From assembly GCF_900187275.1 (NCBI RefSeq), contig NZ_LT906458.1, forward strand, positions 2,160,001 to 2,192,000: 32,000 bases of DNA, in the 5' to 3' direction. The notes beneath the pieces were generated by a model. That model ran no database searches. It worked only from the letters and a program-made list of their open reading frames with translations, and was not told the origin of the DNA. Origin of the DNA: Pasteurella multocida (GTDB lineage Bacteria > Pseudomonadota > Gammaproteobacteria > Enterobacterales > Pasteurellaceae). How positions within the stretch are numbered: the first letter of the stretch is position 1; each line of letters starts with the position of its first letter. A program made the translations under genes and the position numbers. Below are positions 17,168-32,000 of this stretch, in pieces.

Positions 17168-18448
17168 TTAATAGAATAGGTCCACCATACCAACCGTCAA
17201 TGCAGGAATATAAGTGACCATCATTAAAGAAATTAATAATACAACAATAAACCAAACATTATCCTTAGTGACACTCCAAATATCTTTTTTCGCGATAGAT
17301 GAGGCTGTGATTAATACACTTGCCACCGGTGGTGTTTGCTGACCCACTGCAATGTTTAACGTTAAGATGATACCAAAATGAATCGGATCAATGCCCAATT
17401 GTGTAATCAGAGGCATAACAATAGGGACGACTAAAATAATGGCCGCCGCGCCATGTAAAAACATACCAACAATAAATAACATGACATTTAGCATCATTAA
17501 AACGATATATTTATTGTCCGAGATATTTAAAATTGCTGCAGCCATTTGTTGAGGTACTTTCTGTTCTGTTAAAAACAATCCCAAAACAGCTGACGTCGCA
17601 ACCAGTAGCATGACAACGGATGTTCCATTTACACTTTCTACCAATGCTTTATATACTGCATTGAGTGTGAGCTCTTTGTAAATGAAAAAACCAATGATTA
17701 ATGCTAAAAGTACAGCTAAGCCGGCCGCTTCTGTTGCAGTGGTAAAACCTGAAATAATCCCACCTAAAATCAGAACAGGTAACGTTAACGCCCAGAACGC
17801 ATTTTTGAATGCTGTGCATAATTTAGACAAGCTGAAGTGTTCTTCCCTCGGTAAATTATATTTAACCGCATAATAATAACATACAGCAAACATACCTAAC
17901 GAAGCTACACCACCTGCGGCAAGTCCTGCCACAAAAAGCTTAGAAATAGAAACATCCGCCATCGCACCATAAATAATCATGGGGAGTGAGGGTGGGATAA
18001 TCACCGCTAAGGAAGCCGATGATGAAGTAACAGCAGCAGAAAAGCTTGATTTATAACCTCTTTTTTTCATTGCAGGAATGAGGATAGAACCCAGTGCGGC
18101 AACATCCGCTACAGAAGATCCGGAAATTTCAGCAAAGATCATGGAAACACCCACATTGACCATTGCAAGCCCACCTCGGACGAAGCCGATTAAAGCATTA
18201 ACAAAATTAATCAGCCTAACCGATATTCCGCCTGTATTCATTAATGCTCCTGCTAAAATGAAAAGCGGAATAGCAAGTAATGAAAAATTAGAGGCGCCAT
18301 CAAAAACAGACAGTGCGACGTTATATATTGCATCAAAACTATTTGTAATTAACATACCTATGAGTGAAACAATACCAATTGCTACTGCGATAGGCACATT
18401 AATCATAACAAGTAGAACAAGTGCAATTAAAACTAAGAATGCAATCAT
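17168..18448 (-). CDS. TRAP transporter large permease subunit (DctM family), system 1
   Basis: 426 aa polytopic protein. It is paralogous to 27055..28347 (e.g. [44 protein letters not shown]) and overlaps the DctQ gene by 4 nt. Confidence 0.9.
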
Positions 18449-19005
18449 TGTAATTTCTCCCTTGCTATCTTCATACCTTCATTACTGTCCACATCTCGTA
18501 ATGCTTGTTCTATTTCCTCATCATCTTGGGTTTTACCTTTGCTGAGAGAATTAAACGCTTTCGGTATGGATAAAAGTTCTGCAATGATGAATAACACACA
18601 ACCTATAGGCAAAGCAGATTGTGCAACAGATAACGGAATAAAATCGAGGCTGGTGAGTGTTTCATCACCGAAAATAGAAAGCACATAAAAACCAGCCCAA
18701 GTTAATAAAATAAAGAAACTAATAATTAATACTTCTGTGATGCAGAAAAGAACCTTTCTTGTGGTGAGCGGTAACGAAGCGATAAAATTCCCGAATCCCA
18801 TATGACAACGATTTAACGCACTTAGTGCCGCACCATAAAAAGTGAGCCAAGCGAGTAATATCGCCGAGATTTCATCATACCAATATAATGATTTGCCTAA
18901 GAATCGGGTAAATATAGAAATAATGATAATAATGGCCAATGCACTTAAAATAAGTACTGAAATCAGCGTTAAAATTCTTTTCGTTAGGTTAAAGAGTGCG
19001 TCCAT
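18445..19005 (-). CDS. TRAP transporter small permease subunit (DctQ family), system 1
   Basis: 186 aa with four hydrophobic segments. It sits between the DctP and DctM genes and has an acidic C-terminal tail. Confidence 0.85.
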   Translation of the reverse strand: MDALFNLTKRILTLISVLILSALAIIIIISIFTRFLGKSLYWYDEISAILLAWLTFYGAALSALNRCHMGFGNFIASLPLTTRKVLFCITEVLIISFFILLTWAGFYVLSIFGDETLTSLDFIPLSVAQSALPIGCVLFIIAELLSIPKAFNSLSKGKTQDDEEIEQALRDVDSNEGMKIAREKLQ

Positions 19006-19028
19006 AAAAACTTACCCCCGGTTTCTTT

Positions 19029-20018
19029 TTACTTAAGCGTATCCTTCATTTTCTCTAATAATTCTTTTCCATTTGGAACTTCAGAAATGAATTCATCGTA
19101 GATAGGTTGGCTCGCTTCGATAAATGCTTGAATATTTGCATGATTAAGTGTCATGCCACTTTCTACTAATTTCTTTTCCAGTTCACTTTCTCGTTTTTCG
19201 GCCTCCTGATATCCCCATGTTTGTGCTTCTTTTGCCCCAGCTTCAATAATTTTCCGAACATTTTCAGGTAATTTTTGATATGTGTTTTTGCCTACCGTAA
19301 GGTAAGCAGGAGAATAAACATGGTTAGTGATACTGAGATATTTTTGAACCTCTTGGAGTTTGGCTGCATAGATGTTTGTTAGTGGGTTTTCTTGACCGTC
19401 TATGACGCCGGTTCTTAAACCAATAAACACGTCTCCGAAAGGAATTGGTGTTGGGTTAGCACCCCATGCTTTAAACATTTTTAAACGCCAAGAGCTACTT
19501 GGGGTACGAATTTTTAATCCTTTCAAGTCTTCAGGGCGATTGATTGGGCGTGTATTGTTAGTAATACTTCTAAATCCATTCTCCCATAACCCAATGATTT
19601 TATATCCTTTTTTCTCTACTTCTGGTGCAACGAAAGGATAGAAGACTTGTTGCTCAATTTTATTCAGCTGTTGACGGTTTGTGATTAAGAAAGGTAATTC
19701 AAAAATCGCCATTTGAGGAATGTTCGTAGCGAGTGTTGAAGAGAGAAGGGCTATATCAATCGTCCCTAATTTTAATTTTTGCTGCGTGTCTTTATCATTC
19801 CCTAGTTGACCAGAACCAAAGAAATTTAAACGGTAGTCTAATTTAGCTTCCGAAAGTTTTTGGTTTGTGACATCCACAAAATATTTTGTCGTGTCATATT
19901 GTAAAGAACCTAGACTAGCCGTTGTGGATACAACGAGATCTTTAGCCAGAATACTATTCGCAAATAAGAGTGATAAAGATGCCACAATGGTTAATCTTTT
20001 TAATAATGATGTACTCAT
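19029..20018 (-). CDS. TRAP transporter substrate-binding protein (DctP family), system 1
   Basis: Signal peptide LLKRLTIVASLSLLFANSILA. DctP-family core GFRSITNNTRPI...DLKGLKIRTP...WGANPTPIPF...TGVIDGQENP. I moved the start to the second ATG (20018), which has GGAG 9 nt upstream. The ORF-track ATG at 20033 has no SD. Confidence 0.9.
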   Translation of the reverse strand: MSTSLLKRLTIVASLSLLFANSILAKDLVVSTTASLGSLQYDTTKYFVDVTNQKLSEAKLDYRLNFFGSGQLGNDKDTQQKLKLGTIDIALLSSTLATNIPQMAIFELPFLITNRQQLNKIEQQVFYPFVAPEVEKKGYKIIGLWENGFRSITNNTRPINRPEDLKGLKIRTPSSSWRLKMFKAWGANPTPIPFGDVFIGLRTGVIDGQENPLTNIYAAKLQEVQKYLSITNHVYSPAYLTVGKNTYQKLPENVRKIIEAGAKEAQTWGYQEAEKRESELEKKLVESGMTLNHANIQAFIEASQPIYDEFISEVPNGKELLEKMKDTLK

Positions 20019-20164
20019 AGTGAAAGTCTCCATTAGTAGTTTTATGTTTGTGGAAGGATAAAACAGCCTAATAAATCCTCAGTGTTGAAAAGTGATTGGG
20101 ATATGCGAATATTGTTCAATATAACCAAAGGTGATCGTTTGTTCAATCTATGTAATTTTGAATA

Positions 20165-20180
20165 TGTGATCGTATTCACG
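20165..20180. promoter_or_regulatory. CRP-binding site (near-consensus) in the divergent control region
   Basis: TGTGA-TCGTAT-TCACG has one mismatch to TGTGA-N6-TCACA. A TATATT hexamer on the minus strand (20123..20118) would place the site centre near -61.5 of a leftward promoter (class I geometry). That placement is inference. Confidence 0.55.
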
Positions 20181-20260
20181 TTTTTGATGTACTATTAACA
20201 CAAAACCTTTTAAAGAACGGGGTTTTTATTTGAAAAAGTTTTAAAAAAGAAATTCAATTA

Positions 20261-20276
20261 TGTGATATTCATCACA
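20261..20276. promoter_or_regulatory. CRP-binding site (perfect core) upstream of the PdxA-family/dhaKL genes
   Basis: TGTGA-TATTCA-TCACA is a perfect consensus core. The TTTAAT hexamer at 20298..20303 would put the site centre near -41.5 (class II geometry). That placement is inference. Confidence 0.7.
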
Positions 20277-20370
20277 CTATAAAGGTATGAAATTTGTTTT
20301 AATACATTTAACAAAAGTTAAAATATTGATCTTTTGATCATTTCGTTTATTTGTTATTAGGAGAGTTATC

Positions 20371-21384
20371 ATGACGAAATCTACAGTGGCATTGACGTTA
20401 GGTGATCCTGCCGGTATTGGTCCAGAGTTAGTTGCTAAATTACTAGCAAAACAAAATATCAGAGAGAAAGCGAACATTGTGCTAGTGGCAGATAAAGATG
20501 AATTAGAAAAAGGGATGGAGATCGCTAAAGCACAGTTTGTATATGAAGAAGTATCTTTTCATCAATTAGGTCAATATGAATTCAAAACAGGTGTACCCGT
20601 TTTAATTTCTCATAAATCTTCACACCCAAAGCCTTTTGAGTACGGCAAAGTTACTGAACAAAGTGGTGTCTATATTTTAGAAACGCTAAAAGTCGCATTA
20701 AATTTAGCAAAAATGGGGTATGTGCAAGCGATTTGTTTTGCACCACTAAATAAACAAGCGATGCATAAAGGTGGACTGCGTTATCGAGATGAATTGCATT
20801 GGTTTGCCGAGCAAACAGATTTCAATGAATTTGTTTGTGAGTTAAATGTGGTTGATGATATTTGGGCTGCACGAGTGACTTCTCATATTCCATTTAAAGA
20901 TATTGTGCCTAATCTATCAATTAAGGGTGTATTTGATTGTATTCATCTTCTCTATCGCTCGTTAGTTCAAGCTGGTGTTGAAAATCCTAAAATCGCTGTT
21001 CAGGCATTAAATCCTCATGGCGGGGAAGGGGGTGTTTTTGGTGATGAAGAAATGACGATTATTCAACCAGGAATGGAACAAGCACGTAAAGCAGGAATTG
21101 ATGTTTATGGCCCATTTCCTGGTGATACCACAATGCGTGAAGTTGAACGTTTAAAAATTAATGGCGTTGTTTCCATGTACCATGATCAATTTTCTACTGC
21201 GTTGAAGATTTTAGGTTTTGAACGTGGTGTGACAGTACAAGGTGGCATTCCGATTCCTATCACAACAGCTAACCACGGTACCGCATTTGATTTACATGGT
21301 AAAAATATTGCTATTCCGACTGCATTTGAAGCAGCGTTTAACATTGCAGTTAGAATGGGACAGGGTGTTTTAAATCAAAAGTAA
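20371..21384 (+). CDS. PdxA-family NAD-dependent 4-phospho-hydroxyacid dehydrogenase (PdxA2-like; true substrate unknown)
   Basis: LTLGDPAGIGPEL, LNPHGGEGG, MYHDQ and TTANHGTAFDL are signature motifs of the PdxA / 4-hydroxythreonine-4-phosphate dehydrogenase family. Strong SD TAGGAGAG. Confidence 0.85.
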   Translation: MTKSTVALTLGDPAGIGPELVAKLLAKQNIREKANIVLVADKDELEKGMEIAKAQFVYEEVSFHQLGQYEFKTGVPVLISHKSSHPKPFEYGKVTEQSGVYILETLKVALNLAKMGYVQAICFAPLNKQAMHKGGLRYRDELHWFAEQTDFNEFVCELNVVDDIWAARVTSHIPFKDIVPNLSIKGVFDCIHLLYRSLVQAGVENPKIAVQALNPHGGEGGVFGDEEMTIIQPGMEQARKAGIDVYGPFPGDTTMREVERLKINGVVSMYHDQFSTALKILGFERGVTVQGGIPIPITTANHGTAFDLHGKNIAIPTAFEAAFNIAVRMGQGVLNQK

Positions 21385-21404
21385 TCTTTGCTGAGGACTC
21401 AAAA

Positions 21405-22409
21405 ATGACTAGAAAACCAAAAAAACTCCTTAATCATCCAAATGATGTGCCTGCGGAGCAATTAGAAGGGTTGCTCTATGCATGCCATGGGAAACTTTCA
21501 AAAGTAGAGGGTTATAGTGGAGTGATTCGTACAGATATTGCAGATCAGCAAGTCGTCGTGGTTACTGGTGGTGGTAGTGGACATGAACCGATGTTTGCGG
21601 GCTTTGTGGGGAAAGGATTAGCAGACGCTGCGGCACTGGGTGAAATTTTTACTTCACCTTCTCCAGATATTATTATCGAAACGACTAAAGCCGCACAAAA
21701 AGGTCAAGGTGTTCTTTTCGTCTATGGTAATTATGCTGGGGATAATATGAATTTTGATATTGCGGCAGAATTATTAGAAGAAGAAGGTATCACTGTCAAA
21801 ACCGTACGTGTGACAGACGATATTTCTGCGGCACCGCCAGAAAGAATGCAAGAACGTCGTGGTGTTGCTGGTGATATGTATGTCCTTAAAATTGCAGGTG
21901 CAGCCGTTCAGTCCGGTTATGACCTTGACGCCTTACATGAAGTGACGAGTAAAGGGAATTTTAATACTCGAACTATGGGGGTTGCTTTAGCGGCATGTTC
22001 TATTCCTCAGACAGGAAAATTTAACTTTGAGCTTGCAGATGACGAATTAGAGCTCGGTATGGGGATTCATGGTGAAACGGGCGTAAGACGTCAGAAATTA
22101 ACAAGTGCGGATGAAATTAACCAAGAAATTGTTGATCGGATTTGTGCGGATATCGGGTTGCAAGCAGGAGATAGGGTGTGTGTCACAATCAATAATTTAG
22201 GTGCGGCAACTTATACTGAGTTATTGATTTCAAACCGCAAAGTCCATCAAGAATTAACAAAACGTGGTATTCAGGTGCATGACACTTTGATTGGTTCTTA
22301 TTGTACGTCTCAGGAAATGGCGGGGTATTCTGTGACACTTTTCCGCTTAGATGATGAATTACAAAAATTATATGACTTGCCTTGTGATGGTTTTGCATGG
22401 AGAAAATAA
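21405..22409 (+). CDS. dhaK: Dihydroxyacetone-kinase-family substrate-binding subunit DhaK (Dak1 domain)
   Basis: VVTGGGSGHEPMFAGFVGKG and ELGMGIHGETG are Dak1 motifs. 334 aa. Confidence 0.9.
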   Translation: MTRKPKKLLNHPNDVPAEQLEGLLYACHGKLSKVEGYSGVIRTDIADQQVVVVTGGGSGHEPMFAGFVGKGLADAAALGEIFTSPSPDIIIETTKAAQKGQGVLFVYGNYAGDNMNFDIAAELLEEEGITVKTVRVTDDISAAPPERMQERRGVAGDMYVLKIAGAAVQSGYDLDALHEVTSKGNFNTRTMGVALAACSIPQTGKFNFELADDELELGMGIHGETGVRRQKLTSADEINQEIVDRICADIGLQAGDRVCVTINNLGAATYTELLISNRKVHQELTKRGIQVHDTLIGSYCTSQEMAGYSVTLFRLDDELQKLYDLPCDGFAWRK

Positions 22410-22410
22410 A

Positions 22411-23037
22411 ATGAATGTAATTGAAACAAAAGCATTATTGCTATATACCGCAGAGAAAATGATGGCAAGCGAGCCAACACTTACTGAACTTGATCTCAAG
22501 ATCGGTGATGGTGATCATGGTTTAGGCATGTTACGTGGATTTACGGCAGTAAGAGATCTGTTACAGCAAGAGAATTTTCAACCTAAAGACATTGGCGAGT
22601 TATTTGTGACAGTTGGGACGAAAATGATGTCAAGTATGGGAGGCGCTTCTGGCGCGATATTTGGCACCCTCTTTCGTGCTGGAGGTAAGGCGATTATTGG
22701 AGAGAATGAATTCGATACTTCGGTTTTTGCTAAATTTCTTGTAGCGGGTTCAAGTGCTGTATTTGCGAGAGGTGGTGCTAAGCCGGGTGATAAAACAATG
22801 GTTGATGCTCTTGTTGCCGCAGAGAAAAAAGCGGAGGAAGTTAGTCATGAGCCACTTAATGTTGCTTTATTAAGTATTGCAAAAGCTGCAGAAGAAGGCG
22901 CTGAAAATACCCGTCACCAAGTTGCTGTTTTTGGTCGTGCCAAAAGTTTGGGGGAGCGTTCATTAGGTTATGTTGATCCCGGTGCTGTTTCAATGTCATT
23001 CATCATTAAGTATATGGCTGAATTTGTTAACCAATAA
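22411..23037 (+). CDS. dhaL: Dihydroxyacetone-kinase-family nucleotide-binding subunit DhaL (Dak2 domain)
   Basis: LDLKIGDGDHGLGM is the DxxxGDGDxG Mg-nucleotide motif of Dak2. I set the start at the ATG at 22411, with GGAG 8 nt upstream and 1 nt after the dhaK stop. The ORF-track extension to 22351 overlaps dhaK. Confidence 0.9.
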   Translation: MNVIETKALLLYTAEKMMASEPTLTELDLKIGDGDHGLGMLRGFTAVRDLLQQENFQPKDIGELFVTVGTKMMSSMGGASGAIFGTLFRAGGKAIIGENEFDTSVFAKFLVAGSSAVFARGGAKPGDKTMVDALVAAEKKAEEVSHEPLNVALLSIAKAAEEGAENTRHQVAVFGRAKSLGERSLGYVDPGAVSMSFIIKYMAEFVNQ

Positions 23038-23215
23038 TATTTTTAAGTATAGAAGATAAGAGCGGAAGAAAGTCGTGTACTAAAAAAGCATCATATAAAT
23101 ATGCCTTTTATACATTTTCTGCTCTATCTCTTGATGGCTATTGCACTGTTTCTATTCGGGAAATAAATAACCTAGAAAGTCAAGTTAGCGTTAAATTTTA
23201 TCATTGGAATACAGA

Positions 23216-24076
23216 ATGGAAAGTAAAATAAAACTCGCGGTCAACACGTCAATCTATGACGGCTATGATTTAGAAACGATCTTTTCGTCAATAAGAAAGT
23301 GCGGTTTCCAGTTTTTCGAATTAGCATATAATCAGGGTTATGTCAGTGATTTTAAAGAAGACCGCTTTAGCGAAAAACATGCGGGTGAAATTAATCTCTT
23401 AAAAGATAAATATCAATTAAATACGTTGGCGCTTGGCTGTACAATGGATTTAGCAACAGATGATTTATCTTCAATTTTTTTACCTCGTCTCCAGTTTGCT
23501 CATTTAATTGGTGCAAAATATATCAATGTCTGTACGACACAATTAGTTAATAAAAATAAGCTTATTCAAAATCTTATTTCGCTCAAGCCTTTGTTAGCGC
23601 GTTTTGATTGTATTTTATGCTTAGAAAATGCGGGCGATTATAATTTTAATGCGTTTACGACGTTAGAGGATGGTATTGAATTATTACATTTATTAGGTGA
23701 TGAACGTTATGCCTTAAATTTTGATCCCGGTAATATGATGACTTATCAACCTCATCTGGATATTGTCCAACAAGCATTGGATTCCATGCAGTACTGCAGA
23801 TATTTTCATGTTAAAGATGTGGTTGTTCAAAAAGATAAATTTAATTTTGTGACTATTGGACAAGGTGAAATAGATTATTCACTTATTGTGAATAAGTTAA
23901 TTGAAAGCGATATCCCTTTTAGTTTTGAAATTCCATTGCGTATATATAGAGAGCTTGATTCTACACCGAAGAAAATAGAAGGTTTGATTCCTTTGCCGTT
24001 AATTGAAACGACATTGATTGAATCAAAAAAATACATTGATGATATTTATAAAGGATTAGTGAATAAAAATGAGTGA
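23216..24076 (+). CDS. Sugar phosphate isomerase/epimerase, xylose-isomerase-like TIM barrel family
   Basis: Pattern F.FFEL..., GAKYINV, LCLENAG, LNFDPGN, FHVKD and GQGEIDY matches the AP_endonuc_2 / xylose-isomerase-like barrel (metal ligands E, D, H, E spaced as usual). The start is uncertain, either the ATG at 23216 or the TTG at 23204, and the SD is weak. Confidence 0.75.
   Translation: MESKIKLAVNTSIYDGYDLETIFSSIRKCGFQFFELAYNQGYVSDFKEDRFSEKHAGEINLLKDKYQLNTLALGCTMDLATDDLSSIFLPRLQFAHLIGAKYINVCTTQLVNKNKLIQNLISLKPLLARFDCILCLENAGDYNFNAFTTLEDGIELLHLLGDERYALNFDPGNMMTYQPHLDIVQQALDSMQYCRYFHVKDVVVQKDKFNFVTIGQGEIDYSLIVNKLIESDIPFSFEIPLRIYRELDSTPKKIEGLIPLPLIETTLIESKKYIDDIYKGLVNKNE
23297..23305 (+). 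repeat. Hin-type USS core AAGTGCGGT (the only perfect copy I found right of 15 kb)
   Basis: Exact 9-mer followed by a T-rich extension (TTTCCAGTTTTTCG). Confidence 0.8.
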
Positions 24077-25022
24077 AGAAGAAATGGATTTATTAACCGA
24101 GATTGCAGTTTCTTACTATGAACATGAGTTAACGCAAGAGGAAATTGCAAACCGATTTAATATCTCTCGAGTTAAGATTGGTCGGTTATTAAAGAAAGCC
24201 CGTCAGGAAGGGATTGTTGAAATTAATGTGAAATATCACCCGATTTTCACATCAAAATTAGAACAGCGTTTGATAGAACAGTTTGGTATTCATCGCGCCT
24301 TAATTGCTATTGATACTCAGAATGAAGTAGAACAGCGCAAACAAGTCGCTGCGTTAGTAAATGCCTATTTATCCAGTACGTTAAAAGACGGTATGACAGT
24401 AGCAGTTGGGCAAGGACGAAATGTAGCCGCCGTTGGAGAATATGTGGGCGTTTTTCCTGAGCGAAATTGTAAGTTCATTTGTGGTATCGGTGGTACACAT
24501 CGAATAGGTCCACCAATAGATGCTGACCATATTTGCCGTAACTTAGCGCGTAAATTTAATGGCACTAACGAAACGTTGTATTCCCCTGCTTATTTAGAAA
24601 AGCCCGAATTTAGAGATATTTTTTTACAAAATGGGGTAATAAAAGAAACGCTTGATAAAGCTCGCAAAGCGGATATTGCTTTGGTTGGCATCGGTGATAT
24701 GAATGAGAATAGCTATATGGTTCAGTTGGGATGGTTTACTCCTCAGGAAATTACGCATGCACGCATGAATTTAGGTGTGGTAGGTGAGATTGCAGGCTAT
24801 GGCTTTTTTAACTTTCAAGGAGAGCCTGCGGATACAGTGATGAATAACCGAGTGATTGGTTTAAGTCTTGAAGATTTAAGAAAGATACCTTGCGTGATAG
24901 GCATCGCTTCTGAAAATACAAAAGCGACGGCAATTTTGGGCGCTTTAAGAACAGGAATTATTAATATTATTGCTACAACCGCCAGCAACATTAACACAAT
25001 TTTGAGTTTAACGAAAAGTTAA
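24069..25022 (+). CDS. SorC-family transcriptional regulator (HTH plus sugar-phosphate-binding domain)
   Basis: The N-terminal LTQEEIANRFNISRVKIGRLLKKARQEGIVEI is an HTH, followed by a roughly 250-aa SorC/DeoR(Bsu)/CggR/EryD-type effector domain. It overlaps the upstream gene by 8 nt. Confidence 0.85.
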   Translation: MSEEEMDLLTEIAVSYYEHELTQEEIANRFNISRVKIGRLLKKARQEGIVEINVKYHPIFTSKLEQRLIEQFGIHRALIAIDTQNEVEQRKQVAALVNAYLSSTLKDGMTVAVGQGRNVAAVGEYVGVFPERNCKFICGIGGTHRIGPPIDADHICRNLARKFNGTNETLYSPAYLEKPEFRDIFLQNGVIKETLDKARKADIALVGIGDMNENSYMVQLGWFTPQEITHARMNLGVVGEIAGYGFFNFQGEPADTVMNNRVIGLSLEDLRKIPCVIGIASENTKATAILGALRTGIINIIATTASNINTILSLTKS

Positions 25023-25043
25023 GATACTGATAAGGAGCTAAAA

Positions 25044-25499
25044 ATGAAAATCGCCATTGGCTGTGATGATGCGGCTTATAATTTGAAGGTGGAATTAATT
25101 AAGTTTTTAACTTCCCTTGGCATTGAATGTGATGATTTTGGTGCGGGTGCTGGTGATACAACACTGTATCCGAATGTTGCTGAGAAAGTCGCAATCGCTG
25201 TCGCAAAAGGAGAATATGACAGAGGCATTTTAACCTGTGGAACAGGAATTGGTATGTGCATTACTGCGAATAAGATTCCTGGGATTCGTGCTGCTGTGTG
25301 TCATGATGTTTTTTCTGCAGAGCGAGCAAGAAAGAGTAATGATGCGCAGATTATTTGTTTTGGTGAAAGGGTTATCGGTGTCGAATTGGCCAAAGCATTA
25401 TTAAAAACGTGGTTAGCGTGTGACTTCGCAGGTGGTGGTTCTACACCTAAAGTTGCGCAAATTAATGAAATTGATTCTAAATATCATCGCTCTTTATAG
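25044..25499 (+). CDS. rpiB: RpiB/LacA/LacB-family sugar-phosphate isomerase
   Basis: MKIAIGCDDAAYNLK, GILTCGTGIGMCITANK (catalytic Cys) and RKSNDAQIICFGERV. 151 aa. Confidence 0.9.
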   Translation: MKIAIGCDDAAYNLKVELIKFLTSLGIECDDFGAGAGDTTLYPNVAEKVAIAVAKGEYDRGILTCGTGIGMCITANKIPGIRAAVCHDVFSAERARKSNDAQIICFGERVIGVELAKALLKTWLACDFAGGGSTPKVAQINEIDSKYHRSL

Positions 25500-25547: not shown

Positions 25548-26525
25548 ATGAAAAAACTTAATCTTATTTCTTCTGCGATAGTATTAACAATGTTTTCTAG
25601 TGCGTCTATTGCGGCCAGCAACTACACATTTGCTTTGAGTCATTATGGTTCACCAAGTGATACGGTGACAAAAGCGACAGAGTTAATGGCAAAAAGAGCG
25701 CATGAATTATCTAATGGTCGCATTACCATAAAATTACATCCGAATAGTGAATTAGGTAATTCAGGTGCACAAATTGATGGTGTGCGTATGGGGACAATTG
25801 ATATTGTGGTTGTGGGAAATCCATATTATACCACTTTCAATGAAGAGCTAAATTTACTTGATTTACCTTTCTTATTCCGTGATGAAGCACATGTTGAAAA
25901 AGTTTTAGCAGGCGATGTTGGTGAGCATTTGTTAGCTTCTTTTGAAAAAGTGGGGCTTAAAGGTCTAGCGTTTTATGAAGTCGGCTTTAGAGATATTACC
26001 AATAATAAACGCCCTATCAGTACAGTCAAAGATTTATCCCATTTGAAATTAAGAACGACACCAAATCCAGCACATATTTCTGCATTTAAAGAATGGGGTG
26101 TGAATCCAACACCAATGCCATTTAATGAAGTCTATTTTTCTTTAAAAACAGGGGTCATCGATGGCCAAGAGAACCCAGTTCATCATATTTATAACAATAA
26201 CTTACAAGAAGTTCAAAAATATCTTTCTCTGACTCACCATGCCTATACAGCCGCGCCAATGACCATGAATTTAGATACCTTTAATTCTTTGGATAAAGAA
26301 ACGCAGCGTATTTTATTACAAGTGGCTAAAGAAGGGGCAGAGTTAGAAAAACAACTCAACATTGAAGAGAATAAAATTTATCTTGGTAAATTGAAAGAAC
26401 AAGGAATGGAAATTGAGTATTCCCCAGATACGGCGTCATTCCAAGAAGGTGCTAAAAAAGCATGGCATGATTATGCGAAAAAATTTGGTGACAAATTAAT
26501 TAATAAAGTGGTTGAAACTCAATAA
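25548..26525 (+). CDS. TRAP transporter substrate-binding protein (DctP family), system 2
   Basis: Signal peptide MKKLNLISSAIVLTMFSSASIAA. Core GFRDITNNKRPI...DLSHLKLRTT...WGVNPTPMPF...TGVIDGQENP. It is paralogous to 19029..20018. Confidence 0.9.
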   Translation: MKKLNLISSAIVLTMFSSASIAASNYTFALSHYGSPSDTVTKATELMAKRAHELSNGRITIKLHPNSELGNSGAQIDGVRMGTIDIVVVGNPYYTTFNEELNLLDLPFLFRDEAHVEKVLAGDVGEHLLASFEKVGLKGLAFYEVGFRDITNNKRPISTVKDLSHLKLRTTPNPAHISAFKEWGVNPTPMPFNEVYFSLKTGVIDGQENPVHHIYNNNLQEVQKYLSLTHHAYTAAPMTMNLDTFNSLDKETQRILLQVAKEGAELEKQLNIEENKIYLGKLKEQGMEIEYSPDTASFQEGAKKAWHDYAKKFGDKLINKVVETQ

Positions 26526-26530
26526 TAGGT

Positions 26531-26561
26531 AAAAGGCTACTAGTAAATAGTAGCCATTTTT
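26531..26561 (+). terminator. Intercistronic hairpin / partial terminator between the DctP and DctQ genes of system 2
   Basis: GGCTACT (26535..26541) / AGTAGCC (26549..26555) with a 7-nt loop, followed by ATTTTT. Confidence 0.5.
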
Positions 26562-26578
26562 ACATTCAAGAGGGAATT

Positions 26579-27055
26579 ATGATTGAACGTTATAATAAAT
26601 TTATTAGTAATACTTTCCTTTCTTTAGGATGTGTATTCTTTTCAATCCTCGTCATTATGACCTTTATTCAAGTGATTACAAGATATGTTGTGAATATCTC
26701 TTTCCCTTGGGCAGAGGAGTTTTTGCGATTTTGTTATACATGGATGATTATCTTTGGCATTTTGACAACCACACAGATCCAAGTGCCCTTACTCAGAATC
26801 ATGATTTTTGAGAAGTTTAAATTTGGTTGGGTTTTATCCTCTTTACTTTATTGCATTATGTTGTTTTGTTTATTCCTATTAGTTAAAGGTGGAATAAAGC
26901 TTTATACAATGAATGTAAATAGCTATTACTCTGCATTCAAAATTTCTATTTCTTGGGTTTATGTGCCATTTATTATTTGTTTATCTCTAGAAGCATTCAG
27001 AATTGTATTGGCTTTAATTGCGTTAATTCAAACTAAAAAAGTGAGGGATCTATAA
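26579..27055 (+). CDS. TRAP transporter small permease subunit (DctQ family), system 2
   Basis: 158 aa with four hydrophobic segments. Its stop overlaps the DctM start (TAATG). Confidence 0.85.
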   Translation: MIERYNKFISNTFLSLGCVFFSILVIMTFIQVITRYVVNISFPWAEEFLRFCYTWMIIFGILTTTQIQVPLLRIMIFEKFKFGWVLSSLLYCIMLFCLFLLVKGGIKLYTMNVNSYYSAFKISISWVYVPFIICLSLEAFRIVLALIALIQTKKVRDL

Positions 27056-28347
27056 TGTCATTCATTCTTTTATTAGGGACAATGTTTTTATTAACAGTTT
27101 TTGGCTTGCCACTATTTTATAGTATTATTTTTGCTTCAATTGTGACATTGTTTTATTTCTTACCTAATATCCCTGTTACGATTGTTGCACAACAAGTGAT
27201 GCAAGGGTTAGACACCAATGCATTACAAGCACTCGCATTTTTCTTTTTAGCCGGTGAACTGATGAGTGTGGGCGGCATAACTAATCGTATTATTCGATTT
27301 GTCACCTCGATAATTGGTCGTTGGAAAGGTTCTCTGGCATATATCAATATTTTCTCCAGTTTATTTTTTGGTTCTATCAGTGGTTCCGCTGTGGCATCTA
27401 CTGCCGCGATTGGAAGCTCATTAATCCCTGAAATGAAAAAAAGAGGTTATCCCGCCCCTTTTTCTGCTGCATTAACGCAGTCGGCTTCTATCATTGGTCC
27501 CATTATTCCGCCTAGTGTGCCGATGATTGTATTTGCTGCATTAGCAGGAGCAGGTGTTTCCGTTGGGAAGATGTTTATGTCTGGGATTATTCCTGGGCTT
27601 ATGATCGCATTAACATTAATCTTAATTACGTTCATCATTTCAAAAATTAAAGGTTATGGTAATCATTCAGTAGAATTTAGCCTCAAAGAAGTTAAAGAAA
27701 GCGCGAAAGATGCAGTATGGGCGTTACTCTGTCCGATTATCATTCTCTATGGCATTATTTCAGGTATTTTTACGGCAACAGAAGCAGGCGCAGTTTCGGT
27801 CGTTTATGCCTATTTAATTGGTACGTTTGTTTATAAAGAATTAAATCTGGAGCGATTAAAGAAAGCTTTTATTTCTTCTTTAAAAGGTACCATTACAGTA
27901 ATGTTAATTGTTGGCGCGTCTTCTATTTTTGCGTGGATGATTGCGCGTTTGCAAATCAGCCATCAAGTCGCAAGTTGGGTATCTTCTGTGTGCAGTAGCC
28001 CATTAGAGGCGCTTATTCTTATTAATGTGATTGTTCTTTTTATTGGCATGATAATGGATCCTACCGCGGCATTAACCATTTTAGTTCCTGTATTTATGCC
28101 AATCGTTAATCAATTTGGTATTTCACCTATTCATTTTGGGTTAGTTGTTATTTTAAATCTGATGATAGGTCTCATTACCCCGCCTGTCGGTTATTTAATA
28201 TTCTTGTCAGCAAATATCGCAGAGTGTGAACCCATTAAGGTATTGAAAGAAAGTTTACCTTTTTTACTGTCATTACTAGGTTTACTTATTTTACTCATTT
28301 TAGTACCTGAATTTAGTACATTCTTACCCGATTTATTATTTAAATAA
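27055..28347 (+). CDS. TRAP transporter large permease subunit (DctM family), system 2
   Basis: 430 aa polytopic protein. SGSAVASTAAIGSSLIPEMKKRGYPAPFSAALTQSASIIGPIIPPSVPMI is paralogous to system 1. Confidence 0.9.
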   Translation: MSFILLLGTMFLLTVFGLPLFYSIIFASIVTLFYFLPNIPVTIVAQQVMQGLDTNALQALAFFFLAGELMSVGGITNRIIRFVTSIIGRWKGSLAYINIFSSLFFGSISGSAVASTAAIGSSLIPEMKKRGYPAPFSAALTQSASIIGPIIPPSVPMIVFAALAGAGVSVGKMFMSGIIPGLMIALTLILITFIISKIKGYGNHSVEFSLKEVKESAKDAVWALLCPIIILYGIISGIFTATEAGAVSVVYAYLIGTFVYKELNLERLKKAFISSLKGTITVMLIVGASSIFAWMIARLQISHQVASWVSSVCSSPLEALILINVIVLFIGMIMDPTAALTILVPVFMPIVNQFGISPIHFGLVVILNLMIGLITPPVGYLIFLSANIAECEPIKVLKESLPFLLSLLGLLILLILVPEFSTFLPDLLFK

Positions 28348-28357
28348 GGAGTAAATC

Positions 28358-29029
28358 ATGAGTAACTGGATTGATTTATCAATGCCGATTGCTAACAACC
28401 ATGTGCGTTGGCAAACCCATATTGAGAAAAAAGGTAATTTTGATTCGGGGGATTTATTTGAAGCGACACAGCTCCAAGTCTCTTGCCATGCATTCACACA
28501 CATGGATGCACTCAGTCACATTCAGAAAGGCGCTTATAATATTTTAGATATTTCTCCAGATGTATATATTGGCAAGTTTCATGTATTGGATTTATCTAAA
28601 CAAGTGACAGAAAATTTGGCGATTACAGCAGACGTACTTGATGCGATTTGGCCTGAAGGTGATGTAGAGAGAATTATTTTTAAAACTTGTTGGGATCAAC
28701 ACCACCATTATAACACGGTTTGTTTTTGGACCAAGTCTCCCTATATTACTGAAGATGGTGCTAAGTATTTAGCGGAAAAGAAACTGAAACTCATTACTTT
28801 CGATTTTCCTCAAGATTATCCTATTCGAAGATGGGTTGATGGCATCATAGAAAAACCTTTGTCAAAACATGTCACTCACCAGCACTTATTAATGCAAGGC
28901 GTGACATTGGTCGAATACATTTGTAATACACATAAAATTACAAGTCACTGTGTGGAAGGGTTAATGATACCTATTGCTATTGAACATGCAGATGGCGCGC
29001 CTTGTCGCGTTTTGGTCAAAAATCTTTAA
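28358..29029 (+). CDS. Cyclase-family (kynurenine-formamidase-like) metal-dependent hydrolase
   Basis: SCHAFTHMDALSH fits the HxxTHxDxxxH metal-binding signature of the putative-cyclase family. At 223 aa the size fits. Confidence 0.7.
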   Translation: MSNWIDLSMPIANNHVRWQTHIEKKGNFDSGDLFEATQLQVSCHAFTHMDALSHIQKGAYNILDISPDVYIGKFHVLDLSKQVTENLAITADVLDAIWPEGDVERIIFKTCWDQHHHYNTVCFWTKSPYITEDGAKYLAEKKLKLITFDFPQDYPIRRWVDGIIEKPLSKHVTHQHLLMQGVTLVEYICNTHKITSHCVEGLMIPIAIEHADGAPCRVLVKNL

Positions 29030-29041
29030 AAGGTAAATGTT

Positions 29042-30091
29042 ATGGAAAAAAAAATTTACTTTGGTACAAATTTAAAAATGTATAAAGGTAATTGTGAAAC
29101 AGTCGATTACCTTACTCAGTTACTTGCCCTCAGAGAAAAACTTCAATCTGATTATGATATTGAATTATTTGTCATTCCTTCTTATATCGCCTTAAAAGAT
29201 GCTGTACATGCAGCGGCATCAGAGACAACGCATAAAATTCTTATTGGTGCACAGAACATGAATGCTAAGGATAAGGGGCAGTTTACTGGCGAAATTTCAC
29301 CACTCATGTTGAAAGAGCTAGGGGTTCAGTTGGTCATGATTGGGCATTCTGAACGTCGCCATGTTTTGAAAGAAACCGATCAGGAAGAGAATGAGAAAGT
29401 ATTGTCAGCGTTGAAGCATGGCTTTAAAACATTACTCTGTGTTGGTGAAACGTTAGAACAGAAAAATTATCAGATTTCCGATGAAGTACTTCGGACACAA
29501 TTAAAGATCGGTTTGCACGGTGTATCAGTGAAGCAATTACCTCATTTATTCATTGCATATGAACCCGTTTGGGCAATTGGTGAAGGTGGTATTCCTGCAA
29601 CAGCGCAATATGCAGATGAGAAACAGAAGATCATTAAACAATGTTTATTTGAAATGTTTGGTGAGGAAAGTAAAAAGATACCGGTATTGTATGGGGGAAG
29701 TGTGAATTTAGAAAATGCAAATGAATTAATTATGCAGCCTCATATTGACGGATTGTTTGTTGGGCGTAGCGCCTGGGATGCACAATGTTTTTATACTTTA
29801 ATAGACGGTGCGTTAAAAGCCTTGGCGGGTACAACACATCAATTTAGCCCTATTGCTACTCAGCTCATTAAACACTTAGGAGGAAAAGAAAATATCAGTG
29901 CGTTAACGCATTGTGCGAGTCGGATTAGAGTGATGACGCGGAATGAAAATCATATAAATAAAGTAGCAATAGAAAAAATAAATGGGGTGAGCGGGTTATT
30001 TTCGATCGCTAATCAATATCAAATTATTGTAGGTCCTAAATGGGTAGAAAAAATTTATAGCGAAATGAAAGCGTTATTAGAAACAGAATAG
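29042..30091 (+). CDS. Triosephosphate-isomerase-family isomerase fused to a C-terminal PTS EIIB(Glc-type) domain
   Basis: Residues 1 to about 262 form a TIM fold with the catalytic set (GTNLKMY Asn/Lys, GHSERR His102, AYEPVWAIG Glu174, YGGSV phosphate loop). Residues about 268-349, [29 protein letters not shown]...GVSGLF...NQYQIIVGP, match the EIIB(Glc) domain including the phospho-Cys motif C-x-S/T-R-x-R (Cys291, nt 29912..29914). Confidence 0.85.
29843..30088 (+). other. PTS EIIB(Glc-type) domain portion of the fusion protein
   Basis: GGKENI....THCASRIR resembles E. coli PtsG GGKENITNLDACITRLR. The domain boundary is approximate. Confidence 0.75.
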
Positions 30092-30108
30092 ATGATAGGG
30101 AGAAGAGC

Positions 30109-31059
30109 ATGACACAATTAGATTCATTACGCAGTATGACGGTTGTTGTCGCAGATACTGGTGATATTGAAGCAATTAAGCAATATCAGCCACAAGATGC
30201 AACAACAAATCCTTCTTTGATTTTAAGTGCTTCTGCATTGCCCCAGTATGCGCCATTAATTGATGACGCCATTGCTTATGCGAAAACAAAAAGTGATTGT
30301 CCACGCCAGCAATTGGTTGATGCTGAAGATAAACTGGCCGTTAATATCGGCTTAGAAATACTCAAAATTATCCCCGGACGGATTTCTACAGAAGTCGATG
30401 CAAGGCTTTCGTATGATACACAAGCGACTATTGAGAAAGCGCGTAAATTGATCAAGCTTTATAATGAAGCGGGAATAGAGAATCATCGGATCCTCATCAA
30501 AATTGCTTCAACTTGGCAAGGTATTCGAGCTGCAGAAGTGCTTGAGAAAGAAGGAATTAATTGTAACTTGACGTTGTTATTTTCTGAAGCACAAGCGAGA
30601 GCTTGTGCTGAAGCTGGTGTGTATTTAATTTCGCCGTTTGTAGGGCGAATTTTAGATTGGTATAAAGCAAATACGGGCAGACAAGATTATCCGGCTGCGG
30701 AAGATCCAGGTGTGATTTCCGTGACTCAAATTTATAATTATTATAAACAACATAATTATAAGACGGTTGTCATGGGCGCAAGTTTCCGAAATGTAGATGA
30801 AATTATTGAGTTAGCAGGATGTGATCGTTTGACGATTTCACCTACTTTATTGAGTCATTTACAAGCAAGAGAAGGGGAACTTGTTCGTAAGTTAGCATTC
30901 AGCGGCGAGTTAAAAGACAGACCTCAACCTTTAACAGAGAGCGAGTTTTATTGGCAACATAACAGCGATCCAATGGCTGTTGCAAAATTAGCAGAAGGCA
31001 TTTGTAAATTTGCAGAAGATCAAGAAAAACTAGAAAAAATGCTCTTGGAAAGACTATAA
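30109..31059 (+). CDS. talB: Transaldolase B
   Basis: 316 aa, near-colinear with E. coli TalB ([72 protein letters not shown]). Confidence 0.95.
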
Positions 31060-31086
31060 CATGTTGAATAAGAGGGAGTAATCACT

Positions 31087-32000
31087 ATGGCAACACGTAG
31101 AGAACTGGCCAATGCCATTCGTTTTTTAAGTATGGATGCAGTGCAAAAAGCAAAATCAGGGCATCCAGGTGCACCGATGGGGATGGCAGATATTGCAGAA
31201 GTCTTATGGCGTGACTTTTTAAAACATAACCCAAGCAATCCACACTGGGCCGATCGCGACCGTTTCATTTTATCCAATGGTCATGGTTCAATGCTGATTT
31301 ACAGTTTATTACATTTAAGTGGTTATGACCTTTCTATTGAAGATTTAAAACAATTCCGTCAATTACATTCCAAAACACCGGGACACCCAGAATATGGTTA
31401 TGCGCCGGGTGTTGAAACCACAACAGGACCATTAGGTCAAGGGATTACGAACGCAGTGGGTTTTGCGATTGCGGAGAAAACCCTTGCCCATCAATTTAAC
31501 CGTCCAGGTCATGAAATTGTTGACCACCACACCTATGTGTTCTTAGGCGATGGTTGTTTAATGGAAGGGATTTCTCATGAAGCTTGTTCTTTAGCGGGTA
31601 CTCTAGGGTTAGGTAAACTAATTGCCTTCTATGACGACAACAATATCTCAATTGATGGTCATGTGGACGGTTGGTTCACTGATGATACGCAAAAACGGTT
31701 TGAGGCCTATGGTTGGCATGTGATTCCTGCGGTAGATGGTCATAATCCAGAACAAATTCTTGAGGCGGTGAAACAAGCCCAAGCGGAGACAACCAAACCA
31801 ACGCTCATTATTTGTAAAACCATTATCGGTTATGGTTCACCGAATAAAGCCAACTCACACGATTGTCATGGTGCTCCATTAGGTGATGATGAAATTGCGG
31901 CAGCACGTGAATTCTTAAAATGGGAGCATGCCCCGTTTGAAATTCCTGCGGAGATTTATGCACAGTGGGATGCGAAAGAAAAAGGTCAAGTTGCTGAAAA
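31087..32000 (+). CDS. tktA: Transketolase, N-terminal about 304 codons (runs off the right edge)
   Basis: Truncated, so absent from the ORF track. My translation from the ATG at 31087 (SD GAGGGAG) gives [41 protein letters not shown]...[15 protein letters not shown]...GPLGQGI...[12 protein letters not shown], which contains the TPP-binding motifs. Confidence 0.95.

Follow-up and report, generated by a model that had tools for sequence, protein, structure and literature searches.

The last 15 kb or so of a 32,000-nucleotide stretch of Pasteurella multocida DNA (assembly GCF_900187275.1, contig NZ_LT906458.1, positions 2,160,001 to 2,192,000; hereinafter the window) hold a candidate sugar-acid catabolic island. 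It comprises 16 tightly packed genes between a tRNA-Met (16792-16868) and the window end (17168-32000), the last two being talB and tktA. Three genes for a tripartite ATP-independent periplasmic (TRAP) transporter lie on the minus strand (17168-20033), and a 337-bp divergent region separates them from 13 plus-strand genes. The latter code, in order, for a PdxA paralog, Dak1, Dak2, a xylose-isomerase-like protein of the AP_endonuc_2 family, a SorC-type regulator, an RpiB-family isomerase, a second TRAP transporter, a cyclase-family hydrolase, a triosephosphate isomerase (TIM)-family protein fused to an EIIB domain of the phosphotransferase system (PTS), transaldolase and transketolase. From the pdxA-like gene to tktA the intergenic distances are -8 to 53 nt, the one exception being 178 nt between the genes for Dak2 and the AP_endonuc_2 protein. 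The gene talB is preceded by a gap of 17 nt and tktA by one of 27 nt; a terminator scan of the window found no terminator-like site in either. Promoter and terminator scans performed at or below chance and were used only for the absence of terminators in these two gaps.

An earlier note, made from the letters of this stretch, had read the same open reading frames as a tight operon of sugar-handling genes running into talB and tktA, and had proposed that it breaks down C4 sugars to erythrose 4-phosphate (E4P). The coordinates, the gene families, the close packing and the talB-tktA end were all borne out by open reading frame calls and by Pfam and NCBIfam profiles, and the two short gaps before talB and tktA are likewise free of terminators. 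The profile scans covered the non-TRAP island genes, and each scanned family named in that note was matched; the TRAP genes were identified via PDB matches and tblastn homologues.

The PdxA paralog and the core enzymes

The first plus-strand gene (20371-21384) encodes a full-length PdxA-family protein (Pfam PdxA, 273 bits), which the databases name '4-hydroxythreonine-4-phosphate dehydrogenase'. It falls below every NCBIfam cut-off for PdxA and for D-threonate-4-phosphate dehydrogenase, scoring 244 bits against 290 for TIGR00557 and 206 bits against 583 for NF002891. Three histidines, H172, H216 and H271, which we take to be the equivalents of the metal ligands of E. coli PdxA, are invariant in its subfamily. 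Two motifs are replaced, in the window protein and across its subfamily: GHTE by DELHW at residues 140-144, and R-[ST]-S-x-DHG by TTANHG at residues 297-303. The replaced positions presumably correspond to the substrate- and phosphate-contacting His/Thr, Asn and Arg of the E. coli enzyme. Solved PdxA2 structures keep GHTE and IRTSADHGTAFD, whereas the window protein reads DELHW and ITTANHGTAFD. The same division is seen when gene contexts are compared. PdxA proteins encoded next to a DUF1537 kinase (in A. succinogenes, Dorea, the second cluster of Budvicia and Lentibacillus) keep GHTE and R-[ST]-S-V-DHG, whereas PdxA-like proteins without an upstream kinase (in the window, Erwinia, Arthrobacter and Ruegeria) have DEL[HRK] and T-[TAP]-[AN]-HG instead. 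Given that the phosphate-type motifs are kept with DUF1537 and lost without the kinase, the dehydrogenase would act on the free acid, with the Dak kinase acting afterwards. PdxA-family chemistry is the oxidation of a beta-hydroxy acid, with or without decarboxylation, and we propose that the paralog dehydrogenates a non-phosphorylated sugar acid at C3 with NAD(P)+ and possibly decarboxylates it as well.

A sister clade of PdxA-like proteins, 40-52% identical to that of the window, occurs in a different setting. Of the 83 such loci that were fetched, 57 carry a homologue of an enolase-superfamily dehydratase, 29 a dihydrodipicolinate synthase (DHDPS)-family protein, 24 an aldehyde dehydrogenase and 29 a relative of the Amidohydro_2 protein of the Salmonella cluster described below. 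The dehydratase matches PDB 3stp with 798 bits, a structure that we take to be the L-lyxonate dehydratase of the published L-lyxonate pathway. Transporters in these loci are of the TRAP, TctC or major facilitator superfamily (MFS) type (example loci L088, L092 and L093), and the permease of the first TRAP transporter of the window (TRAP1) is 61-68% identical to TRAP permeases in nine of them. The wider PdxA-like clade thus appears to be tied to free C5 sugar acids, which by itself proves nothing about the substrate in the window. L-xylonate and L-lyxonate are breakdown products of ascorbate; together with the presence of the sister clade in L-lyxonate-type clusters, this keeps alive the idea of an ascorbate-derived substrate. 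DUF1537 and RuBisCO-like genes had been expected beside the 42-47% identical homologues; their neighbors proved to be the enolase-superfamily dehydratase, DHDPS and aldehyde dehydrogenase genes. More distant matches, at about 31% identity, are 'pdxA' genes of Rhizobium plasmids with unrelated gene contexts.

The TIM-EIIB gene (29042-30091, plus strand; NCBIfam NF011497, 749 bits) encodes a TIM domain that retains the catalytic K12, H102 and E174 and scores 283 bits with the canonical TIM model NF000722, under its cut-off of 293. The domain's top PDB match is 11ef, named 'L-erythrulose-1-phosphate isomerase', by the modest margin of 182.5 bits to 168.9 for the best canonical TIM. The window protein and 11ef have in common the motif GRSAW in loop 8 and a 14-letter motif after the catalytic Glu (IGENGIPASADYAD in 11ef); the canonical TIM 7rgc has GSASL and IGTGKSATPE instead of GRSAW and IGExGIPAxAxYAD. 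The TIMs encoded in the Vibrio, Budvicia, Salmonella and Arthrobacter clusters have GR[STF]A[WH], as does 11ef, and an IGExGxPA insertion past the catalytic Glu is common to those of the window, Vibrio and Budvicia. Loop 8 reads G[SG]ASL in canonical TIM and also in a TIM from an acidobacterial metagenome-assembled genome (locus L023) that merely neighbors a PdxA-like gene. These loop-8 and post-Glu motifs may define L-erythrulose-1-phosphate isomerase activity.

Separately, the window TIM is 60-65% identical to proteins named 'triosephosphate isomerase 2' in gut Firmicutes (Erysipelotrichaceae, Dorea) and in Apibacter; its identity to the cluster TIMs of Vibrio and Enterobacterales is lower (31-45%). 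This greater closeness to Firmicutes and Apibacter suggests horizontal transfer of the TIM gene. The Pfam EIIB match covers residues 274-306, with Cys291 kept in a CASRIR context. Fusion of the glucose-type EIIB domain to TIM is found only in some Pasteurellaceae, namely Pasteurella, Basfia, Testudinibacter, Avibacterium, Gallibacterium and Lonepinella koalarum (proteins P0284-P0313); equally close TIM orthologues in A. succinogenes, Cricetibacter, Rodentibacter and Conservatibacter are without it (P0314-P0325). Speculatively, the fused domain might pass PTS phosphate to DhaL-ADP, or might simply report the state of the PTS.

The RpiB-family isomerase (25044-25499, plus strand; Pfam LacAB_rpiB, 176 bits) is encoded by the second ribose-5-phosphate-isomerase-family gene in the window, beside the housekeeping rpiA (1786-2466, minus strand) about 23 kb away. 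Its assignment to the role of DerI, the RpiB-family enzyme of the published erythrulose routes, draws on context, since the gene is kept in every related cluster and a housekeeping rpiA is present elsewhere. In the D-apiose cluster on plasmid p42f of R. etli, which has such a TIM/RpiB pair, the two proteins are respectively 44% and 47% identical to those of the window.

The kinase is split into a DhaK-like, substrate-binding Dak1 subunit (21405-22409, plus strand; Pfam Dak1, 383 bits) and a DhaL-like, nucleotide-binding Dak2 subunit (22411-23037, plus strand; Pfam Dak2, 175 bits). The Dak2 reading frame spans 22351-23037, and its real start is probably at 22411, which gives 208 residues, the length of the Basfia and Gallibacterium orthologues. 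Dak2 passes the DhaL model TIGR02365 (171 bits, cut-off 138), and Dak1 is slightly short of the DhaK cut-off (376 bits, cut-off 406), being nearer PTS-type DhaK structures (250 bits) than ATP-type DAK (162 bits). The motifs GSGHEP, GDNMNF and GIHGE are kept, the last of which presumably includes the His to which a free carbonyl is bound as a hemiaminal. Dak1 and Dak2 are 48% and 34% identical to DhaK and DhaL of the R. etli D-apiose cluster, and Dak1 is 42% identical to a fused Dak of Pantoea. We propose that they form a two-subunit erythrulose kinase.

The xylose-isomerase-like TIM-barrel protein (23216-24076, plus strand; Pfam 61 bits) belongs to a distinct subfamily of AP_endonuc_2 (PF01261). 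A search of PDB sequences found no relative of it, and a word-indexed protein search gave 45 close relatives with generic names. Its AlphaFold model (pLDDT 92.6) is closest in fold to ketose 3-epimerases, UlaE and the isomerase Art22, at 10-16% identity, and the set E137/D170/H198/E238 is invariant. With the PF01261 protein of the ApnO-type cluster of Pantoea, there is no blastp match, and hhalign detects a remote relationship (92.7%, E 4e-7). It could be a 3-oxo-acid decarboxylase, a 2-oxo/3-oxo isomerase or an erythrulose (phosphate) 3-epimerase. We lean towards the decarboxylase because the protein stays with the Dak, TIM, RpiB, tal and tkt genes on a Klebsiella plasmid free of the PdxA-like gene, because a 28% identical homologue directly precedes DhaK/DhaL in R. 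phaseoli, and because the sister clade, which lacks it, does not lead to erythrulose.

Conservation, control region and transport

A survey of loci anchored on the PdxA paralog and compared by tblastn with reference proteins reveals that the core is kept together in Pasteurellaceae and beyond. Paralogs 57-81% identical to that of the window are present in many Pasteurellaceae, in Vibrio and Photobacterium, and in some Enterobacterales (Salmonella enterica, Budvicia, Erwinia, Leminorella, Sodalis and others), and the core recurs next to the PdxA-like gene in Cricetibacter, Gallibacterium, Basfia, Budvicia, Vibrio, Salmonella, Erwinia and Arthrobacter. All fetched loci with a PdxA-like protein of at least 59% identity carry genes for Dak, AP_endonuc_2, SorC and RpiB, save one from Sodalis (L098; PdxA-like 67%), which retains only MFS, PdxA-like, MFS and Amidohydro_2 genes; the TIM gene, too, is found whenever the fetched DNA extends to its place. 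In the smallest version, that of Erwinia piriflorinigrans, one strand carries SorC, TIM and Dak, and the opposite strand RpiB, MFS, PdxA-like and AP_endonuc_2. A more distant locus of Arthrobacter encodes TctC, TctA, an AP_endonuc_2 protein of a different subfamily, a fused Dak, RpiB, a PdxA-like protein (45%) and TIM. The island is thus real and functionally coherent, and its grouping is not due to chance.

Several related clusters depart from this plan. On the Klebsiella pneumoniae plasmid pMagicconchshell_02 (positions 4479-16503 of locus L100; also H124 and H230) genes for SorC, TIM, RpiB, transaldolase, transketolase and a xylose-isomerase-like protein (38%) occur without a PdxA-like gene; this cluster, which is related to that of Salmonella, has MFS, 2-hydroxyacid dehydrogenase and second PF01261 genes instead, and an IS5 element adjoins it. 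Its Dak homologue (41%) was seen by tblastn and is not in the PLSDB gene table. In R. phaseoli, a locus combines TRAP, beta-hydroxyacid dehydrogenase, xylose-isomerase-like and DhaKL genes, with TIM and RpiB absent. A third cluster type is found in A. succinogenes 130Z (5012-10786 of L102) and on a Dorea-like metagenome contig (6284-13303 of L103), with the order KdgT-family permease, DUF1537 kinase, phosphate-type PdxA (GHTE and Arg kept), LerI-type TIM and RpiB. Its TIMs are respectively 72% and 62% identical to that of the window, and the Dorea version adds a fused Dak. This third type would seem to be a 'kinase-first' pathway leading from a sugar acid to E4P, and we know of no characterization of it.

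The transaldolase (30109-31059, plus strand; TalA/B type, TIGR00874, 527 bits) and the transketolase, of which the N-terminal 304 codons lie before the window end (31087-32000, plus strand; Transketolase_N, 526 bits), follow TIM-EIIB in Gallibacterium in the same position as in the window. RpiB-tal-tkt lies inside the Salmonella and Klebsiella-plasmid clusters, and tkt-rpiB in the Pantoea cluster. The linkage of tal and tkt to the cluster is frequent, not obligatory.

Between TRAP1 and the pdxA-like operon, the divergent control region (20034-20370, 337 bp) contains two predicted CRP-like sites, one at 20165-20180 with one mismatch to TGTGA-N6-TCACA and a perfect one at 20261-20276. They are two of the three such matches in the 32 kb, about 1.25 being expected; they fit a catabolite-controlled operon, and CRP would be expected to bind there. 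The SorC/DeoR-type sugar-binding transcriptional regulator (24069-25022, plus strand; Pfam Sugar-bind, 285 bits) is 56-83% identical across type-B clusters and 68% identical to its counterpart in the Pantoea ApnO-type cluster; the latter similarity suggests that a common downstream intermediate is sensed by both.

TRAP1, on the minus strand, consists of a DctM-type large permease (17168-18448; 77% identical by tblastn to DctM of the Vibrio cluster), a DctQ-type small permease (18445-19005; 58-72% to DctQ of the Vibrio and Cricetibacter clusters) and a DctP-family solute-binding protein (19029-20033; PDB matches to SiaP-type DctP, E ~1e-47), which is 60-76% identical to its counterparts in the Vibrio and Cricetibacter clusters and starts five codons later (329 residues) in most database entries. 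It has LKIR at residue 173, presumably the position of the carboxylate-binding Arg of DctP proteins. In strain 36950 it was automatically named '2,3-diketo-L-gulonate-binding protein YiaO', a name for which no evidence was found, although it likewise hints at chemistry derived from ascorbate. The second transporter (TRAP2), on the plus strand, begins with a solute-binding protein (25548-26525) that has LKLR at residue 166 and matches PDB 4nq8, 4p9k/4pak, 4pdh and 4pdd (E 1e-57 to 1e-51), which we take to be pantoate or D-erythronate complexes. A stem-loop with a perfect 8-bp stem, found in the terminator scan (26535-26555, plus strand), separates it from the permease genes and may serve differential expression of the binding protein. 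The permeases, DctQ (26579-27055) and DctM (27055-28347), are 77-89% identical to Cricetibacter and Gallibacterium orthologues. All six TRAP genes have tblastn homologues at genes with DctP, DctQ or DctM Pfam matches in related loci. The cyclase-family (PF04199) metal hydrolase gene (28358-29029, plus strand; Pfam 69 bits) always follows TRAP2, and the unit is confined to the Pasteurellaceae versions; a 32% identical homologue adjoins a sister-clade PdxA-like gene in locus L039. The hydrolase, a candidate lactonase or accessory enzyme, probably opens a lactone, and the Amidohydro_2 proteins of the relatives may do likewise. Across all cluster versions the transporters are of the TRAP, tripartite tricarboxylate transporter (TTT) or MFS type. 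Such organic-acid-type transporters make a free tetrose or tetrulose unlikely as the imported substrate.

The 178-bp gap (23038-23215) marks a variable cassette slot between the Dak2 and AP_endonuc_2 genes. Empty in P. multocida and Basfia, the slot is filled by MFS and Amidohydro_2 genes in Cricetibacter, G. salpingitidis and Budvicia, by TctCBA in a Gallibacterium sp., and by TIM and Mem_trans genes in Vibrio. The gap may be a deletion scar; tblastn of the window detected no remnants of these slot genes (MFS, Amidohydro_2, TctCBA, TIM, Mem_trans). Upstream of the island the window carries housekeeping genes, namely serA (536-1768, minus strand), rpiA, hemW, ispH, ileS, ribF, murJ, serB and yajQ. 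All eight island proteins that were looked up are exact matches to P. multocida entries, several of them on at least 1000 contigs, and close relatives are present in P. canis and P. oralis. The island, including genes annotated pdxA and tpiA, is further seen at 99-100% identity on three P. multocida PLSDB records of 260-325 kb (NZ_CP020346.1, CP084164.1 and NZ_CP113523.1); these 'plasmids' look like chromosome segments filed as such.

A proposed route from a free sugar acid to erythrose 4-phosphate

From the gene content, conservation, motif patterns and best solved relatives described above we infer both the reactions and the substrate. On balance, the island is probably a unit under cAMP-CRP and SorC control that converts a non-phosphorylated, most probably C5, sugar acid or its lactone via erythrulose to E4P. 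The TRAP systems would take up the acid, most probably of the five-carbon (pentonic) type, or its lactone. The PdxA paralog would then use NAD(P)+ to oxidize the free acid at its 3-hydroxyl, giving a 3-oxo (beta-keto) acid. Loss of CO2, either on the PdxA paralog or, as we favor, on the xylose-isomerase-like protein, would yield the C4 ketose erythrulose, probably the L-form, which the DhaK/DhaL-type kinase would convert to erythrulose 1-phosphate. The TIM-family domain, acting like LerI or EryH, would shift the carbonyl to give D-erythrulose 4-phosphate, and the RpiB-family enzyme, in the DerI/EryI role, would form D-erythrose 4-phosphate, which the presumably co-transcribed transaldolase and transketolase would draw into the pentose phosphate pathway. 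The EIIB domain probably couples this pathway to the state of the PTS. Given an acid as input, a C4 ketose phosphate as output and PdxA-type chemistry, the simplest substrate is an acid of five carbons whose C1 is released as CO2. That a LerI-type isomerase is needed points to L-erythrulose, and from there to an L-series pentonate or a branched acid. It is very likely that the island ends in E4P, and an imported sugar acid one carbon longer than the tetrose is the more likely substrate. The lower half of the pathway appears to be known chemistry, while the entry enzymes appear to be uncharacterized.

This agrees with part of the earlier C4-to-E4P proposal. The Dak, TIM and RpiB proteins indeed resemble the LerK/LerI/DerI (EryH/EryI) route, and the tal/tkt linkage recurs in other lineages. 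The import of a free tetrose or tetrulose, which that proposal implied, now seems unlikely in view of the acid-type transporters in all versions and a PdxA-family entry enzyme with its phosphate-type motifs replaced. As for the proposal's expectation that the two isomerases would group with the tetrulose-phosphate enzymes, the TIM is closer to LerI than to canonical TIM, but the RpiB scores as an ordinary one.

Several observations weigh against the proposed route. The island RpiB lies above the cut-off of the TIGR01120 rpiB model (151 bits against 139) and below that of the DerI model NF051858 (168 bits against 240), a model built for Rhizobiales with which the R. etli protein scores 258. The Dak subunits are of the PTS-dependent DhaK/DhaL kind, yet no DhaM is encoded within the 32-kb window. 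The nearest folds of the xylose-isomerase-like protein are 3-epimerases, and it has no BLAST-level similarity to the xylose-isomerase-family protein of Pantoea. The tal-tkt genes are absent from the Basfia, Vibrio and Erwinia versions, and where they lie in P. multocida may be owed in part to housekeeping gene order. The number of carbons assigned to the substrate derives from logic and from the context of a sister clade at 42-50% identity. Finally, no description of the entry module was found in the searchable literature, which omits most subscription journals, so that a published characterization could exist.

One alternative is degradation of D-apionate or its lactone. D-apionate is the oxidized form of the plant cell-wall pentose D-apiose; here the PdxA paralog would replace the non-homologous oxidoisomerase ApnO, and the xylose-isomerase-like protein would act as a 3-oxo-isoapionate decarboxylase yielding L-erythrulose for LerK, LerI and DerI. 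The downstream genes and the regulator match the Pantoea ApnO-type cluster (SorC 68%, RpiB 56%, Dak 42%, tkt linked), the R. etli D-apiose cluster has the same LerI/DerI pair with DhaK/DhaL, the solved relatives of the TRAP2 binding protein presumably bind pantoate and D-erythronate, both apionate-like, and many of the hosts are herbivore- or bird-associated Pasteurellaceae. We nevertheless regard it as improbable: the window encodes no homologue of ApnO, ApnL, OiaK, OiaX or ApsD, ApnO belongs to the Rossmann/PGDH_C proteins rather than to the PdxA family, and the xylose-isomerase-like protein is only remotely related to that of Pantoea. The chemistry is a further obstacle, in that C3 of apionate is a tertiary alcohol; PdxA-type 3-dehydrogenation would be impossible there and a new rearrangement activity would be required. 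A shorter acid, D-erythronate or threonate, could instead be oxidized at C3 and decarboxylated to dihydroxyacetone, which Dak would convert to dihydroxyacetone phosphate, with the TIM domain serving as a true triosephosphate isomerase. Such chemistry would mirror the DUF1537/PdxA2 routes with the order of steps reversed, and it would suit the closeness of Dak1/Dak2 to the DhaK/DhaL models, the resemblance of the TRAP2 binding protein to presumed D-erythronate binders and the R. phaseoli locus with its TRAP, beta-hydroxyacid dehydrogenase, xylose-isomerase-like and DhaKL genes and no TIM or RpiB. It leaves unexplained the strictly conserved RpiB gene and the recurrent tal/tkt linkage, and the TIM domain has the LerI-type loop 8, not the canonical phosphate loop; we hold it very improbable.

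Uptake of a free C4 sugar or polyol (erythrulose, erythrose, threitol or erythritol), with Dak acting on imported erythrulose and the PdxA paralog in a side role, would account for the fact that Dak, xylose-isomerase-like, TIM-family, RpiB-family and SorC proteins are the families of the Brucella and M. smegmatis routes. To this explanation, too, we assign little probability, since the island has no polyol dehydrogenase, EryA/EryB-type enzyme or ABC sugar transporter, and the transporters are of the acid type in all versions. Moreover, the PdxA paralog is part of the type-B clusters of every genus examined and adjoins the transporter gene in the minimal Erwinia one, the single relative found without it being the Klebsiella plasmid cluster. 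That the locus is a mosaic of unrelated sugar genes beside a housekeeping talB-tktA pair, with no common pathway, could be argued from the versions that miss tal-tkt and from the slot between the Dak2 and xylose-isomerase-like genes that differs among genomes. The probability of this is close to negligible when a seven-gene core is kept across Gammaproteobacteria, and six of the seven (no SorC was found) in an actinobacterium, despite rearrangements, and the gaps are short or overlapping.

The proposed route, from a free and probably C5 acid to E4P, can be carried further in a conjecture that is unlikely to hold in full. The PdxA paralog would found a class of free-pentonic-acid dehydrogenases and, with a xylose-isomerase-like decarboxylase, turn ascorbate-derived L-xylonate or L-lyxonate (or another host C5 acid) into L-erythrulose; this would constitute an animal-associated 'dehydrogenase-first, Dak-kinase-second' route to E4P. 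In Pasteurellaceae, EIIB would take over from DhaM by passing PTS phosphate to ADP bound on DhaL, or would gate the pathway according to the state of the PTS. Under that conjecture, the hosts of the route would be Pasteurella, Gallibacterium, Vibrio, and some Salmonella and Klebsiella plasmids. If the main reading, the proposed route itself, is right, a widespread, mis-annotated PdxA paralog would gain a function, and P. multocida and its relatives would not be using this copy for vitamin B6; an orphan xylose-isomerase-like subfamily would likewise gain a function. Bacteria would have a third way, beside ApnO/OiaC and DUF1537/PdxA2, to shorten sugar acids by one carbon. Veterinary and human pathogens would also have a nutrient route around glycolysis and fructose bisphosphatase, comparable to that of erythritol in Brucella, and the TIM-EIIB fusion would offer a compact system for studying how the PTS talks to a non-PTS pathway.

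Comparison with known pathways

In its general design the island follows the erythritol, tetritol and D-apionate systems that are already known. The Brucella erythritol pathway is reported to comprise EryA, EryB, EryC, EryH (TpiA2), EryI (RpiB) and EryD, as Barbier et al. are said to have described in 2014 in PNAS. There, as is proposed for the island, xylose-isomerase-superfamily, TIM-family and RpiB-family enzymes with a SorC/DeoR-type regulator feed E4P to the pentose phosphate pathway; unlike Brucella, the island has no FGGY kinase (EryA) or GlpD-type dehydrogenase (EryB) among its 16 genes. EryC is a D-erythrulose-1-phosphate 3-epimerase (PMC10733421). In the tetritol pathway of M. smegmatis (Huang et al. 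2015 JACS), which employs LerK, LerI and DerI, LerI turns L-erythrulose 1-phosphate into D-erythrulose 4-phosphate, from which DerI makes E4P (PMC10733421). The island resembles it in having a Dak-family kinase and TIM-family and RpiB-family isomerases leading to E4P, the TIM motif being shared with the solved LerI. It differs in the lack of a polyol dehydrogenase and an ABC transporter, in a split, DhaK/DhaL-like kinase, and in the putative entry of an acid via the PdxA paralog. The kinase also recalls the PTS-dependent DhaKLM system, for the island has DhaK- and DhaL-like subunits and a glucose-type EIIB domain, with Cys291, fused to TIM.

Two acid-degrading systems are related through the PdxA family. 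In the DUF1537/PdxA2 pathways for D-threonate and D-erythronate, reportedly established by Zhang et al. (PNAS, 2016), acid sugars are imported by TRAP or other transporters and oxidatively decarboxylated by a PdxA-family enzyme, as is proposed here. In those pathways the kinase comes first and PdxA2 acts on a phosphate ester, whereas the island has no DUF1537 gene, has lost the GHTE and Arg motifs and would have its Dak kinase act afterwards. L-lyxonate-type clusters, of which Ghasempur et al. are said to have characterized one in Biochemistry in 2014, host the nearest clade of PdxA-like proteins (42-50%), frequently together with a related Amidohydro_2 protein and a TRAP system akin to TRAP1. 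They lead through LyxD, a DHDPS-family dehydratase and an aldehyde dehydrogenase to 2-oxoglutarate, not E4P, and none of these enzymes is encoded in the window.

The nearest parallels are the D-apiose/D-apionate catabolic clusters, reportedly described by Carter et al. in 2018 in Nat Chem Biol. Like the island in the proposed reading, D-apionate clusters carry Dak genes and lead from a C5 sugar acid through erythrulose phosphate to E4P via TIM- and RpiB-family isomerases. The cluster on p42f of R. etli CFN42 (L094) has OiaX, OiaK, ApnL and DerI, as named by NCBIfam, carries DhaK/DhaL and is without a PdxA gene. On a plasmid of Pantoea sp. At-9b (L095) are found genes for an MFS transporter, a fused Dak, TIM, a PF01261 protein, an ApnO homologue and SorC, with divergent rpiB and tkt, a layout that presumably equals the published 'xylose-isomerase-family decarboxylase' variant. 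Identities to the island are 68% for the regulator, 56% for RpiB, 42% for Dak and 77% for transketolase, and in architecture the Pantoea cluster appears to be its closest described-type relative. The PdxA paralog was considered as a counterpart of ApnO and rejected, since ApnO (PDB 5t57) is a Rossmann protein (PF03807/PGDH_C) and no PdxA gene occurs in the R. etli cluster. The ApnO proteins of R. etli and Pantoea gave only noise in tblastn against the window (E at least 0.1), and no homologue of the lactonase ApnL, the kinase OiaK, the RuBisCO-like protein OiaX/OiaT or the dehydrogenase ApsD was found in the window; NCBIfam has models for these, which match the R. etli proteins. The island further differs from these clusters in its PdxA-family oxidizing enzyme, another xylose isomerase subfamily, TRAP uptake, an extra TRAP/cyclase unit and the EIIB fusion.

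The earlier statement that no characterized pathway has this composition accordingly needs narrowing: the order of modules is found in the Pantoea ApnO-type cluster and the LerI/DerI pair in R. etli, but no counterpart has been described for the entry pair of a PdxA-like protein and this AP_endonuc_2 subfamily, for the second TRAP/cyclase unit or for the EIIB fusion. Judged by its genes, the island appears to be a parallel version of the D-apionate systems, in which a PdxA-like protein and a different xylose-isomerase-like protein take the place of ApnO and its xylose-isomerase-family partner.

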